Shown: one piece after another, positions 26,216 to 34,560 of the stretch
How the letters are laid out: each line of letters starts with the position of its first letter
How positions within the stretch are numbered: position 1 is the first letter of the stretch
From: Naegleria gruberi
Taxonomy: Eukaryota
Length of the DNA: 64,000 nt
Direction: 5' to 3' (one strand)
NCBI GenBank assembly: GCA_000004985.1
Contig: GG738851.1
Made by a program: the position numbers and the translations under genes
Notes under the pieces: model-generated
What the model was told of the DNA's origin: nothing
Databases searched by the model: none
The model's input: the letters and a program-made list of their open reading frames with translations, nothing else

Positions 26216-27730
26216 TTATTTAGAAAAGTCAAAATCATCAAAAGACTTGTTTTCATCCTTGCTAACACCAATAGCAAAACTGTCGTGAGCACGTTCGGAA
26301 GTAAATTCTGTGTCAACATATTTGGTATCGTTACCATCATGCAATTGTGGTTTGAATGGAGCAGAAATACCCTTACTATAGAGGTTATCCCAGTTAATAT
26401 TCTTAAAGAATGGATGTGCTCGGATTTCAGCTCCATCTGATGGGCCACCTCCTAAACGTTTATATTCTTCTCTGTCTAATAAACCTTTAAGAAGAGATTG
26501 TGCATCAGCTGGAACACTACTTGGGAATTTGAGTGGGGCCTTCAAAATTAATTCATACATTTCATTAATATTTTCAGAGTAGAATGGTGGCAAACCAACA
26601 ATCATTTCATACAAGAGAATACCGAGAGACCACCAATCGACAGCCTTACCGTGTCCTTGTCCCTTCAAGATTTCTGGAGCTAAATATTCAGGAGTACTAT
26701 TAATGTTAAAAATGTTTAAAATCATTTCAATCAACATACCCACAGAATGTATAAGTTGGAGTATTATTTCCCATAGATGTCTTGGCCAATCCAAAATCTG
26801 TTAAAACAGCATAACCATCACCATCAAGAACAACATTTTCAGGCTTCAAATCTCTGTAAATAATATCATTCTTGTGCAAATGTTCAATAGCCATAACAAT
26901 TTGAGCAGCATAGAATTTAGCACGTTCAACATCAAATTTAGTTTCTTCTCTCAAGTGGAAGAATAATTCACCACCTGGTAAATAATCTAATACTAAATAC
27001 AACTTTTCTTCAGTTTGGAAAGCATAATGCAAAGAAACAATGAATGGGTGATCAATACTTTGCAAAATTTTCTTTTCAGCAAGGGTATGTGACACCATGT
27101 TTTCCTTGATGATCATATCCTTTCTAAGAACTTTCATGGCATAGACTCTAGAAGCACCCTTTTGTTTAACCTTCATAACTTTACCGAATGAACCTCTTCC
27201 GACAACTAACCAAATAATTAAAAAACAAAGCTTTGTGTTTTTACATACCTGTAAGTAATTCAAAATCGTTCAAGGAAACCTTAACATCTGACGATTTGTT
27301 ACCAATAGTAATTTGTTCCAAAGATTTAGCCTTAAGAATTTCCTCCTTGAATTCTTCCAATCCTTCCTTATCAGATGATGGATTATAATTCATAGCTTTG
27401 TTCAATTCTTTCATCCAAACTTGGAACTCTGTTTCATTTTCCGCACTAATTTCATAAACTCTGGCCAAGTTTTTACCTCTAAGTTTAAAGCTCATAGGCT
27501 TTGTTTCATCAATTTCAACTTTAGCTCCTTGGATATTGATAAAACCTGTTGGCTTGAGCTCACCTTGTTTCTTGAAGTAGAAAAGAAGCTTTCCTCTCAA
27601 TTCAAACCATCTTCCTGTTATCATCATGGTGATCAATATTATTAAATTAAAATTTTAATACTTACTCTTGTAGGTTTTAATTTTACCTCCCTTCTTCTTT
27701 AAATATCCAGAGAAGTCTGGCTTTTCCATA
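26216..27730 (-). CDS. AGC-family protein kinase with N-terminal PH domain (PKB/Akt-like); 4 exons
   Basis: Exon 1 ~27667..27730 (MEKPDFSGYLKKKGGKIKTYK), intron GTAAGT..AACAG. Exon 2 ~27249..27614 is the PH domain (..EFQVWMKELN). Exon 3 26740..27205 carries GRGSFGKVMKV, HRDLKPEN and DFG; intron 26697..26739 (GTATGT..TAATAG, 43 nt). Exon 4 26216..26696 carries TPEYLAPE and the AGC tail ending FDDFDFSK. Confidence 0.85.
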
Positions 27731-28408: not shown

Positions 28409-29701
28409 TTAGACGGTTTTATAAGGATCAAATTCGATCGAGGTATTGGAGTTTCCGAAATATTGCTTGCTGTGGCTTTCAATCATTTTGGAAAGCATTT
28501 TGACACTGCCCATGATACCGGACTTGCTTATTGGTTGTAAGAAACTTTCATTATTCAAAATTCTTTCGGTTTGATACGAGTCGTCCTTCTTAAAAACTGG
28601 CAATGTTTCAATTTCCTCACTTTTCTCATGAACTTTTTTGGAATAATTGGACATGATAACTGGGAATAAAGACAAAAGTGAGAGGCAAATAAGGAATATG
28701 ATGGTTTTTGGTTGATAAATGTCATTCACACTTTTCAATTCTGAAAGAATTAATCCAGCATGAACAGTTATATAATTAAATGGAATCATTCCTATAAATA
28801 CAGAATATGTTTGTTCAGCAGCAGAAATACCAAGAACAGGTCCAGCAATATTTACAAACCAGTTTGGTGTCAGTGGAAATAATCTTAATGAAATTAAAAA
28901 CCAAACCATTTTAAAACCTCCTAGTTTTCTATTCCTATTCATTAAGGAAGATAGTTTTGAAATTTTTGTTCTGAACCATTCGAAACTCAATAGAAAATCC
29001 TTTCCACTAAAATACCACAATACATGACAAAGAACAGCTCCAATAGTATTTAAAACTGTGCAAATAAATGTTCCATAAAAAGTTCCCATCAAAGCACCAG
29101 ATATTATATTCAAAAATATTGTTCTGAATAGAAATACATATTTGTTAAATATGATGGAAATAAATTAGTAAAAATTAGCACACTTTCCACTTACCCTGGT
29201 ACACAACAAATTTGATTCTTTTGAAGGATCATTCCTAATATTTCATTATTAATTACTTACAAATAAATATAAACAACAAAAAAGGCAGAATAATTCAAAC
29301 GAATGCTTGTCAGCTTCCTCACTCTTGAGTATTTCATAATCCTTCTTAAGATCATCCAAAGTCCATACCATTTTAATATTTAGTTTTGAATGGAGTGGAA
29401 TATAAAAGTATAATACAAAACATAAATTCAAAATTGACACTAGTGGTATTAATAATAATCTCCGATAAGACTTTTTGTATTGTTTTGATGAAGAAATAAT
29501 TTCCTCCTCATCAAAATTGTTCTCCCTATGATTCATTGATGAATAATTTAGTGTCGGAACAAAATCTGTTGTTGTTAATTTATCATGGTGTAGCCTCTGA
29601 TTATTGTTGGTATTATTAAATTCTTCTTCCGATCCTCCTACCACATAATTATTGATTCGATGTGTTGTTGTCGTAGTATTCAAAGATGTTGGAAATTTCA
29701 T
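28409..29701 (-). CDS. TVP38/TMEM41 (DedA, SNARE-associated Golgi protein) family membrane protein; at least 2 exons, junction in 29114..29248 unresolved
   Basis: The upstream ORF ends ..SFELFCLFCCLYLF|GTAAGT. The downstream ORF carries IFLNIISGALMGTFYGTFI and FPLTPNWFVNIAGPVLGISAAEQ, typical of the DedA/TVP38 core. The frames differ across the gap. Confidence 0.5.
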
Positions 29702-30174: not shown

Positions 30175-31940
30175 ATGGATCCAATTAGCCAAGAAACTCA
30201 AGCAGAGATTTCTTCGGATGCTGTTGCTACTGATAATGTTACTATAAATGAGGAGCAGCCTCAACTTGTAGTGAGTGTTCCACCAACAATAACAATCAGT
30301 ACAGAGAATAACGATGTTGAGGTTATTAGTAACAACAATGAGCAAGGAAGCGTACCGAGTTCTCCAACGCTACTAGTAGAAGTCTCATCTTCGTCAAACA
30401 CTCCAACAATTTCAACTTCTGATGCTATGAACGTTTTGGTTGCAACTTCCACAGGCAACATGGCCTCAATTGCATCATCAATGACGAGACAACTAACAGA
30501 GAAAAGTATAGGTAAGATTTTTATTGAATTTGAAATCCTTAATCTTCTTTATCAGAGGAAGATTCAAATGAAGCAACTTGTGTGGATATGGAAACATCTA
30601 CATTCGTTGATGATTATTCATCTGGCGATGAAGATGATCAAAACAAAAAGAAAAAGAAAGATGATCCTAAAAAGTTTAACCTTGACGGAATTAATACAAT
30701 GAAAGGAATCATAATGGAAGAATGGAAAAAGTTTGGTTTTGCTGCTCAAACAAAACGAGATGCTGAAATGTGGGCACAAACACTTCAATTTCCTGGAGTT
30801 CCCGAAAGAGGAGAGGTTCTTAGAAGATTATTTTCTGTGTTTAGATGGGGTGGATTGTGTTTTAGACATAAGGCAATTGCATTTGATAAAAAGAAGAGTG
30901 ATGACGATTCAGATTTTGTTTGGAAAAATTGGTATGATGTTGGATGGCCTATTTGTACAGCTATTTCTCATGGTGGTAGAGTAATTATTCAATTACCTAA
31001 GAAAACAGGATCCGACAGAACATATGATTATTCATTTTGGAATTGGATCATTACAGGATCTAAAACAGGGGATGTTGCAAAGCATGTGACAACAGGAACA
31101 TCTGGAGACCATTGTATAAAGCGAGGAAAGATAATATTCAAGAGATTGAGTGCTACGCATGGTATTGATTTTGAAGAAAATGAGTTACCTCTCATGGATG
31201 GAACAAGGAAGGTATTAATTGAACAAAAAACCACAGGTTTCAGTTTGAGAGACACCAAAATGTTAAGATCAGTTGAATATACATTGAAACATCACAGACA
31301 TTGGGGAATGAATATTCCAATTGGTGGTGAAGGGCAAACCTTACTTACAGGAAGTAAATCTTATGCAAATGGATCCAATGGCCATTTATACATTTATCAC
31401 ATGGCACCAAAAACTGACTCTTATGGTGGTATTATGCTTGGGTTAGAAGGAAGCGAATATGGTAAATATGATATGTGTGGTGAATACCACGGTGTGAGTG
31501 CCAAGTCAAGTGCATTCTCACCCACACTCGGTTTCAAATGGCATTCCAAGGAACATCTAGATTTGACAACAGTGAAAGGCCCAGGTAAATATGATTGTAT
31601 GTTTGTGGATTTGTCATATGGTTGGGATTTTATTGTTGAAAAGTATGAAAACGAATGGAAGGATGATATGGTCAAGCAAACATCATTACCTAATCCAAAC
31701 CATCCACAGTTTACAGAAATTTCAACAAAACTCAATCTTTCTCCAAAATTTATTTCATCCATTGTAAATTTGAGAAACACTGAGAGAGGAAGAAAATGGA
31801 AATCACTTGTAGACAAACGATTAGAAAAGACAAGTAATAATTTTAAGGACAAAATTACAATATCAAAGAAGAAAACCAAGTTTTACAATTTTACAACAAC
31901 CCGAGCAGCAATCTCCTTCGCCAATTTATACGGGCAATAA
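30175..31940 (+). CDS. hypothetical protein: Thr/Ser-rich N-terminus plus ~380-aa Trp/His/Gly-rich globular C-terminal domain; exons 30175..30511 and 30556..31940, intron 30512..30555 (GTAAGA..ATCAG, 44 nt)
   Basis: Splicing joins ..LTEKSIG to EEDSNEATCVDMETSTF in frame. No known family recognised (segments such as WGMNIPIGGEGQ, HLYIYHMAPKTDSYGG, CGEYHGVS). Confidence 0.55.
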
Positions 31941-32755: not shown

Positions 32756-34560
32756 TTATTTGTCTGTCTTTTGCACAATAATTGGAGTACCTACTTGTAC
32801 AACTACAAAGGCATGGATTGGTTTTGTAGAAAATTTCTTATTCTCCTTCAACAATTTAACATAATCACTAAGTTGTGTTTTTGCTTTTTCAACAACATGA
32901 CTAACTATTTTCATTTCCTCCTTATCTGTTCCAAAGAGATATGTTTCATTTAATGGTAGATTAAGTAATTCATTTTCGAATAATTCAGAAAGTCCTTCAT
33001 TAATTCTTTCAACAGTTTTGGGACGTTTCCATTTTCCACTCAATACATCAAACATAGTTCTCCTATATTGCTCTATCAATATCTTTGATTTCGATTTAGT
33101 TCTCTGTTTTAAAACATATTTCAATTGTTTATCATTCCAGGTTAAACCATTAGGACTAATTCTTTTAAGTTCAAATATTATCACATCTTTATCACTTTCC
33201 AATATTATATCAGTTCTTTTATCAAAATCATTATCTACTTTTTGATTCTCACTGAAATGTTGTTCATTGATTCCACTTTCTGTTTTAACTTGGAAATAAG
33301 AGTTTCCATGTTTATAGTAAGCTTGTAAAACACAATAAATTGCATGTTGAAGTGCTCCCTCTGAAAAAGAATTATCATAATGGATATACCTTTCTCCAAT
33401 AATATTTTCCAATATCTTTTTTACAATGTCCACAGAAGGATGTTTGTAACGTAATATCATGTCATTTTGAGTTAGTGAAACAATATTTTCCAGTTCATAA
33501 AAATATTGTTTTTGTGCTATTTCATTGGGAATTAATAATGTTTTACAGAATGAATTATCTTCTTCTGAAAATGTAAGCATTCCATGGTAATACATGAAGG
33601 ATAATGTATTATCCCATACTTGTTTTACACTTAACTCAGTCGTTGGTGGTTCTATAATCTCACGAAGTTTGAAAGAACTAACAATGGAAGTATTAACTTG
33701 AACAAAATTTGTGGCTAAAAGTTGTTGAATGATAGGAGTAGAAACTGAAGTTGTTGCAAGAGTAGCAAAAACATTCTCACTAATTTTTGTGTTATTATCT
33801 ATCATATTGATGAGAGGAATATCTTTACCTTCCATAACATCTGATCTGAATTGATTATTACTCAAAAGCTTATCCATAAAATACATTGACAGAGTGGGAT
33901 TGAAGAGGGGTTGAGATGATCCTGGAAAATGATAACCTTTATAGAATCTTTTCATTATTGAGATTGCATTATTATTCTGATGATCATTTAAAATACCTAT
34001 ATTATTCAAGGCCAGTCTCAAATCACTTTCAGTGAAACCAACTAAATCACCAAACATTTCCCAATCTGCTTTTTCCTTTCAACATTGCTGTTACCAAGTT
34101 ATCAAATGACACAAGAGCATCGGATGAAATAATTTGTTGAATATTACCTTCCATATTATGAATGGTTAAAAATCTTGTGATATCCGAATTGATTTTGTTG
34201 AATAACGCTTGTTTGATATCTTCAGGAGAACCACTAACATCAATTGAAAAATGTGTATGATTCTCAGGTTTGCCAATCCACAAACCACCAAACAATTCAT
34301 CAAATTGATCTTTCTTGTTAATATCATAATATGACGTCAACATTGATAATAACAATGACTTTCCCCATCTCGGGGGACGAACAAAGAATAATTGTTTACC
34401 ACTACTTTCCAACAAAGGAATCAAATGAGTCTTATCAACATAGAATTGTTTGCTTCTTCTGATGGACGCAAAGTCTGCTTCACCATACGGAAAATAGGGA
34501 ACAGTAACATCAATTAGATTGTTATTTAAATTTAGAATTGTTGAAAATTGTCTGAGTTGA
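32756..34560 (-). pseudogene. bacterial-type AAA-ATPase-like (PF09820-like) plus C-terminal PD-(D/E)XK nuclease (DUF1703-like) gene, apparently disrupted
   Basis: FYVDKTHLIPLLESSGKQLFFVRPPRWGKSLLLSMLTSYYD..DELFGGLWIG is the hallmark of the predicted-AAA-ATPase N-domain. The C-terminus DIILESDKDVIIFELK is a D..E.K PD-(D/E)XK core. There is a +1 frame change at an A5 run near 34050, and the frame extends upstream to a TAA with no in-frame ATG. Confidence 0.6.

Follow-up and report, generated by a model that had tools for sequence, protein, structure and literature searches.

An Ntox11 toxin-family domain in a spliced nuclear gene of Naegleria gruberi, probably acquired from bacteria

The Naegleria gruberi gene NAEGRDRAFT_63615, located at positions 30175–31940 (+) of a 64,000-nucleotide stretch of contig GG738851.1 (GenBank assembly GCA_000004985.1), hereafter the window, encodes a protein of 573 amino acids (aa) whose core belongs to Ntox11 ('Novel toxin 11', PF15521); every sequence and structural hallmark of the domain that could be tested was found in it. 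The gene is native to the eukaryote and is not a contaminant. We consider it likely that its product is an intracellular protein of the amoeba, the Ntox11 core of which was acquired from bacteria and domesticated, and is still enzymatic.

An Ntox11 core with all published motifs

In the comparison with Pfam hidden Markov models, aa 200–488 matched PF15521 over model positions 9–280 of 294 (E = 5.1e-36; 125 bits, the cut-off being 25 bits), and the public database record of the protein carries the same tag; no NCBIfam family was matched. Ntox11 was defined by Zhang, de Souza, Anantharaman, Iyer and Aravind (2012; PMC3482391) as an alpha/beta region followed by a beta-rich C-terminus, with the N-terminal motifs GxR and RxxxoH (where o is Ser or Thr) and, as further motifs, H, GxE and GxxH, plus one residue that is acidic. 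All six are present in the Naegleria protein, which also shows the succession of an alpha/beta and a beta-rich half. An initial annotation, made from the DNA letters, had quoted five peptide strings from this domain as examples of a region without any motif that it could place; the strings all occur in the product (aa 163–174, 208–222, 362–397, 420–433 and 460–473), but the Pfam score and the published motifs do assign the domain. The annotation had further held that a confident match to a well-known family would make the gene routine. The match is indeed confident, but Ntox11 is not a well-known family and its predicted structure has no detectable fold relative in the PDB (see below).

Residue conservation was counted across 92 diverse Ntox11 family sequences. 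R254, H314, G385, G388 and E410 are invariant, whereas W185, H251, G252, W276, T313, N365, H389, Y391, G403, G408, H424 and K440 are each shared by 85 or more sequences, and the Naegleria protein holds the consensus residue at every position of either kind. The features of the core are as follows, in window coordinates and with counts out of these 92 sequences.

30675–31718 (+): Ntox11 core, aa 153–500, 70% identical to N. fowleri; the Pfam envelope, aa 200–488, corresponds to 30816–31682
30966–30980 (+): SHGGR, aa 250–254, containing GxR as G252-G-R254; R254 invariant, H251 and G252 each 89/92
31143–31160 (+): RLSATH, aa 309–314, the RxxxoH motif; H314 invariant, T313 87/92
31221–31223 (+): E335, 91/92, on the beta-strand of aa 330–337
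31290–31313 (+): HHRHWGMN, aa 358–365, with the C-terminal 'H' motif as H361 (also H359); H361 82/92, N365 86/92 with D in the other six
31368–31400 (+): NGSNGHLYIYH, aa 384–394; G385 and G388 invariant, H389 90/92, Y391 88/92
31440–31457 (+): GLEGSE, aa 408–413, containing GxE as G408-L-E410; E410 invariant, S412 77/92
31479–31490 (+): GEYH, aa 421–424, the GxxH motif as G421-EY-H424; H424 90/92
31536–31541 (+): K440-W441; K 87/92, position 441 W in 75/92 and F in 13/92
31608–31610 (+): D464, the C-terminal acidic residue of the family, 76/92

What sets the Naegleria copy apart from bacterial Ntox11 is its surroundings: it has neither a signal peptide nor a delivery domain (PVC-metallopeptidase, eCIS_core or another), its gene is nuclear and spliced, and it begins with a disordered Ser/Thr-rich N-terminus. 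The missing delivery context concerns the bacterial system and not the homology of the domain.

Predicted structure

An AlphaFold2 model of aa 148–505, built on an alignment of 85 sequences, reached a predicted local distance difference test score (pLDDT) of 94.7 and a predicted template modelling score of 0.94. The model opens with three long helices, followed by the alpha/beta half and then the beta-rich half: helices alternate with strands to about aa 340, and strands dominate between about aa 360 and 465. Very confident as it is, this predicted structure has no fold relative that could be detected in the PDB. A Foldseek comparison of the full-length model with 350,542 PDB chains returned nothing usable (best E = 0.24), the profile of the 85-sequence family matched no PDB sequence, and a single-sequence search against PDB gave only a chance match (6arq, E = 0.44). 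Many of the weak, non-significant fold matches were to proteins with a lipid pocket of the SRPBCC/Bet v1-like type, and no lectin fold was among the PDB matches; a class II aminoacyl-tRNA synthetase-like fold, with its antiparallel-sheet catalytic core, was a further candidate. The domain had been described as 'enzyme-like or lectin-like' from its composition; that it is globular and enzyme-like is borne out.

Two further candidates were tried and rejected. For a cupin of the ectoine synthase type (PF06339), only a sub-threshold Ectoine_synth match was obtained and no such fold appeared among the matches; an ADP-ribosyltransferase, prompted by an H-G...Y...E pattern, was likewise unaccompanied by any match to that fold.

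Gene structure and regions of the protein

The locus is covered by two open reading frames (ORFs) in different frames, 30175–30702 and 30582–31940 (+). Excision of a 44-nt segment unites them in a single frame of 573 codons and a TAA stop, whereas the first ORF, if left unspliced, ends at 30702. The gene and the parts of its product outside the core are arranged as follows.

30175–30511 (+): exon 1, aa 1–112 and the first base of codon 113; Ser/Thr-rich, predicted-disordered extension
30512–30555 (+): intron, 44 nt, GT..AG (GTAAGA...TATCAG; GTAAGATTTTTATTGAATTTGAAATCCTTAATCTTCTTTATCAG), the removal of which joins both ORFs in frame
30556–31940 (+): exon 2, remainder of codon 113 to aa 573, with the TAA stop at 31938–31940
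30556–30674 (+): acidic and lysine-rich linker, aa 113–152 (including DDYSSGDEDDQNKKKKKDDPKK); 35% D+E, 17.5% K
31719–31937 (+): Lys/Ser/Thr-rich C-terminal tail, aa 501–573; helical in a low-confidence model, partly conserved with N. fowleri to about aa 556

The spliced product is identical, over 100% of its length, to XP_002681073.1 / EFC48329.1 / UniProt D2V468 (NCBI, UniProt). Hence, the two-exon delineation of the initial annotation coincides with the public model, and only the length of 570 aa given there has to be corrected. In N. fowleri, the direct ortholog is FDP41_009687 (P0002), which is 64% identical over aa 110–556 and has largely the same flanking genes; the order VTT/PH-kinase (−), Ntox11 (+) and Ufd2 (+) is common to both species. 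The full identity to the database entry and the similarity to this ortholog exclude a chance ORF.

Because the deposited gene model is itself a prediction, it provides no independent proof of the 44-nt intron, for which the backing is indirect. Unlike the spliced N. gruberi gene, the N. fowleri gene has no intron and consists of a single uninterrupted ORF of 1656 nt with an N-terminal extension of equal length, and the pairwise alignment of the two proteins opens three residues ahead of the exon junction (query aa 110, subject aa 108). Furthermore, the neighbouring kinase gene carries a 43-nt GT..AG intron at 27248–27206 (minus strand), which shows an intron length of about 44 nt to be normal in the N. 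gruberi genome. The base composition of the gene (35% GC) matches that of its surroundings (32% in the window). No second Ntox11 copy was found in the window, and no Rfam family, tRNA or tandem repeat at the locus. A 152-aa antisense ORF inside the coding region, at 31421–31879 (−), is not supported by homology and most likely arose by chance.

In the full-length model, confidence is confined to aa 150–500, with pLDDT below 50 at aa 1–136 (short stretches excepted) and 542–573. Residues 1–112, with 18% Ser and 12.5% Thr and devoid of W, H, Y and C, form the Thr/Ser-rich and disordered N-terminus that had been proposed, and the acidic/lysine linker was also correctly recognized; its pLDDT is low up to about aa 150 and its conservation with N. 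fowleri is weak. The N-terminal extension is not conserved in sequence between the two species, although one of equal length exists in N. fowleri. The suggestion that it is probably O-glycosylated did not hold up: no signal peptide, hydrophobic or transmembrane segment was found in the N. gruberi protein (maximum 19-residue hydropathy 0.95), which makes glycosylation in the secretory pathway unlikely and leaves disorder as the supported alternative. Nor did Pfam, composition and hydropathy reveal a membrane-targeting domain. As for the core, held to be rich in W, H, G, Y and C, its composition at aa 153–500 (W 3.4%, H 4.0%, G 10.6%, Y 4.0%, Cys 1.4%) appears moderately enriched in the first four residues relative to typical protein frequencies, but not in Cys.

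Bacterial relatives and their delivery systems

When 1.84 billion cluster representatives were searched with a profile, at least 1000 matches were retrieved at E ≤ 1e-3, of which 641 had E ≤ 1e-10 and 227 had E ≤ 1e-30; the labelled matches include bacterial proteins fused to modules of extracellular contractile injection systems (eCIS) and bacterial genome loci. In the strict sense, therefore, the family is not lineage-specific, one of the two options raised by the initial annotation, whereas the other, a horizontally acquired family, is the best reading of the data. The architectures comprise eCIS_core with Ntox11, Anthrax_toxA with Ntox11, and Ntox11 with phospholipase D (PLD; P0084, P0092). 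In another relative (P0102), the string CASGKDRTG lies upstream of the Ntox11 domain in a region without a Pfam match; we read it as a putative CX5R phosphatase motif. A giant GC-rich bacterial protein of 7107 aa (P0030) holds many near-identical Ntox11 copies, in 12 matched stretches, which alternate with HExxH zincin-like modules and with spacers that are acidic and of low complexity, and looks like a multi-effector of the MARTX (multifunctional autoprocessing repeats-in-toxin) kind. Two other proteins, P0044 (5464 aa) and P0052 (5509 aa), resemble it.

Prokaryotic genomes, one per species, were scanned with the pattern SHG[GS]R[VI][IVL]IQL, yielding seven loci from Chlorobiota, Roseomonas, Planctomycetaceae, a proteobacterial metagenome-assembled genome (MAG), Terriglobia and Nitrospirales. 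At four of the seven, a stand-alone Ntox11 gene lies within a core cluster of the type VI secretion system (T6SS), adjoining ClpV, Hcp, VgrG or TssG:

L003, 7776–9125: Roseomonas
L004, 7818–8882: Planctomycetaceae MAG
L006, 7800–8867: proteobacterial MAG
L008, 7695–8963: Nitrospirales MAG

The proteins at these loci share with the Naegleria core the scanned pattern, 26–32% identity, the conserved residues and a similar size (about 350–450 aa), but they are bacterial, adjoin ClpV/Hcp/VgrG and have no disordered N-terminal extension; presumably, they are injected cargo. The intergenic gaps at L004 and L008 are too small for an adjacent immunity gene, and the bacterial relatives appear to be without immunity partners. 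The neighbourhoods of the three loci outside T6SS clusters (L002, L005, L007) gave no consistent functional hint. The table of Zhang et al. assigns to Ntox11 delivery by the Photorhabdus virulence cassette (PVC), no immunity protein and a predicted RNase activity of uncertain metal dependence; it names as holders several bacterial phyla together with "Trichoplax, Naegleria", with the remark 'Naegleria possibly secreted' (PMC3482391).

A 2024 atlas of Legionella effectors calls Ntox11 "structurally uncharacterized" and uses a model of the N. fowleri protein FDP41_009687 as its Ntox11 reference structure, which it reports as the closest match (16.2% similarity) to a cryptic domain at the N-terminus of L. 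pneumophila VpdC/Lpg1426 (PMC11696984). As reported there, the cryptic domain is distantly related to Ntox11 in structure, has conserved Arg, Glu and Tyr in a groove and is delivered into eukaryotic cells, and either Arg66Glu or Arg184Glu partly relieved the toxicity of VpdC in yeast (PMC11696984). VpdC differs in that this domain is joined to a patatin phospholipase that ubiquitin activates, and in its delivery by the Dot/Icm system (PMC11696984).

Distribution among eukaryotes and origin

Close relatives of the N. gruberi protein (39–64% identity) are those of N. fowleri, Willaertia magna and Percolomonas and those on eukaryotic metagenome contigs, while Willaertia, N. lovaniensis and Acrasis kona hold a second paralog group. 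In a neighbour-joining tree of Ntox11, a crude distance tree without support values in which most tips were unlabelled and the Trichoplax copies were left out, all eukaryote-labelled sequences fall in one clade. Within the first group (group A), Willaertia branches outside N. fowleri and N. gruberi, which fits the expected species relationships. The simplest reading of this distribution would be one old transfer from bacteria to Heterolobosea, followed by duplication and vertical descent. In other eukaryotes, the domain occurs in a DEP-DEP-Ntox11 architecture (P0038, P0041). These two sequences and P0075, all from sequencing-run assemblies, look eukaryotic, are AT-rich and of low complexity, and have DEP domains; the record of P0075 lists DEP only.

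Probable function and alternative explanations

Under the domestication that we favour, the Ntox11 domain, taken up once from bacteria by an ancestor of the Heterolobosea, would have descended vertically and duplicated into the two paralog groups, with lineage-specific disordered or regulatory N-terminal regions replacing the bacterial delivery modules. The bacterial versions would hit a target that is found in eukaryotic cells and that the producing bacteria either lack or can have hit without harm. The Naegleria protein would act as an enzyme in the cytoplasm of the amoeba on a molecule common to eukaryotic cells, its activity presumably being restrained or redirected by the disordered N-terminus and the basic C-terminal tail. 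That it is most likely catalytically competent we infer from the retention of all polar residues conserved across the family (R254, H314, E335, E410, H251, N365, H389, Y391, H424 and K440), and the missing signal peptide suggests a cytosolic location. The chemistry is a guess that we hold to be somewhat more apt to fail than to succeed: because Arg, His, Lys, Glu, Asn and Tyr are placed on the strands of an antiparallel sheet, and in view of the classification by Zhang et al., the substrate may be a phosphate ester or contain a nucleotide, as in RNA cleavage, another phosphodiesterase reaction or a nucleotide-dependent modification.

Several points weigh against parts of this scenario. The RNase label calls for caution, some of the default RNase calls of 2012 having proved wrong for other families (the RES toxins, for instance, later turned out to degrade NAD+); a two-lobed domain of 350 aa is large for a toxin RNase, and our guess at the chemistry is read solely from residue types. 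The fusion partners, namely PLD, the CX5R-like segment and the patatin of VpdC, point to membranes and lipids. The searched literature (PF15521, 'Novel toxin 11', gene and protein accessions) yielded no activity experiment on any Ntox11 protein. The crude tree, lacking support values and the Trichoplax copies, does not settle between one transfer and several, so that a single transfer is what we infer rather than observe. Finally, the cytosolic location is at odds with the remark 'Naegleria possibly secreted' (PMC3482391).

The same fusion partners are the mainstay of an explanation that we find unlikely, namely that Ntox11 binds or modifies a phospholipid, a phosphoinositide or a membrane-anchored protein, with the Naegleria copy acting at a membrane. 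Besides the PLD fusions (P0084, P0092), the CX5R-like CASGKDRTG of P0102, where Pfam finds no match, the two DEP domains of P0038 and P0041 and the patatin phospholipase that bears the distantly similar VpdC domain, the SRPBCC/Bet v1-like proteins among the weak, non-significant fold matches would be in line with it. However, multi-effector toxins routinely mix unrelated activities, such that the substrate cannot be read from a fusion partner; charged or polar side chains make up the conserved set, which does not line a hydrophobic pocket, and the Naegleria protein has no membrane-targeting domain.

The retention of the same residues also bears on whether the domain is an enzyme at all. A non-catalytic, 'lectin-like' binding or scaffold module recognizing a sugar, a protein or a nucleic acid appears improbable: Arg, His and two Glu unchanged from bacterial toxins to amoebae are typical of enzymes, as is the use of Ntox11 as cargo at the terminus of eCIS toxins, the Arg substitutions in VpdC lower toxicity, and lectin folds are missing from the structural matches. 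Such a module would be compatible with the lack of an established activity in the family, and W185, W276, W441 and Y391 could, together with His, Asn and Glu, form a ligand-binding site.

Still less probable, in our view, is that the protein is a secreted offensive toxin of Naegleria directed against prey bacteria, competitors or host cells. The remark of Zhang et al. and the toxin pedigree of the domain speak for it, as do the predatory life of Naegleria and the pathogenicity of N. fowleri; however, the protein has neither signal peptide nor transmembrane helix, the N-termini are disordered and hydrophilic, with no obvious hydrophobic leader discernible by eye in the aligned orthologs, and the gene is single-copy and syntenic rather than part of an expanding, fast-evolving arsenal. 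Contamination from bacteria, an artefact of the assembly or a decaying pseudogene, which the overwhelmingly bacterial membership of the family might suggest, is effectively refuted, since the intron, the eukaryotic flanking genes, the matching base composition and the synteny with N. fowleri identify the gene as native, and its ORF is intact with all catalytic-type residues kept.

The gene, its PF15521 tag and the listing of Naegleria among the Ntox11 holders in 2012 were already public. Our results go slightly beyond the cited papers in the spread of the family across Heterolobosea in two paralog groups, the DEP-fused eukaryotic versions, the repeated placement in T6SS core clusters (the 2012 table has PVC only) and the absence of a PDB fold relative. 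Ntox11 is widespread (641 or more cluster representatives at E ≤ 1e-10), is carried by several injection systems and has kept all its conserved residues in amoebae, among them the pathogenic N. fowleri; a practical route to the function of the family is offered by a eukaryote in which the domain is tolerated and conserved. A bolder version, which we regard as a rather unlikely one, is that Ntox11 represents a new fold with an undescribed activity on a target conserved in eukaryotes, injected via T6SS and eCIS with no need for self-immunity and tamed by heteroloboseans as an endogenous regulator. If this were true, the non-lethal Naegleria ortholog would be a tractable entry for learning which reaction a toxin family present in hundreds of bacterial lineages carries out and what it acts on in the cell.

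Genomic neighbourhood

The genes flanking NAEGRDRAFT_63615 encode a 2-oxoglutarate dehydrogenase E1, a PH-domain protein kinase, a VTT-domain membrane protein, a Ufd2/U-box ubiquitin chain elongation factor and a GH14 beta-amylase. The downstream neighbour is an aminotransferase gene in N. fowleri but an AAA-ATPase_like (PF09820) gene in N. gruberi. The latter, at 32756–34424 (−) between the Ntox11 gene and Ufd2, constitutes a local break in gene order and is seen as two overlapping ORFs, 34047–34424 and 32756–34057, the overlap suggesting a frameshift or a short intron.

The PH-domain kinase gene is split by very short GTATGT...AG introns, at 27206–27248 (−), directly ahead of the Gly-rich loop VGRGSFGKV, and at about 26740–26800 (−). 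In the N. fowleri annotation, the VTT protein and the PH-kinase form one gene of 922 aa (L001, 2216–5838), whereas in N. gruberi they are separate groups of ORFs, at 28409–29701 and 26216–27636 (−); one of the two models may have wrongly merged two genes or wrongly divided one.

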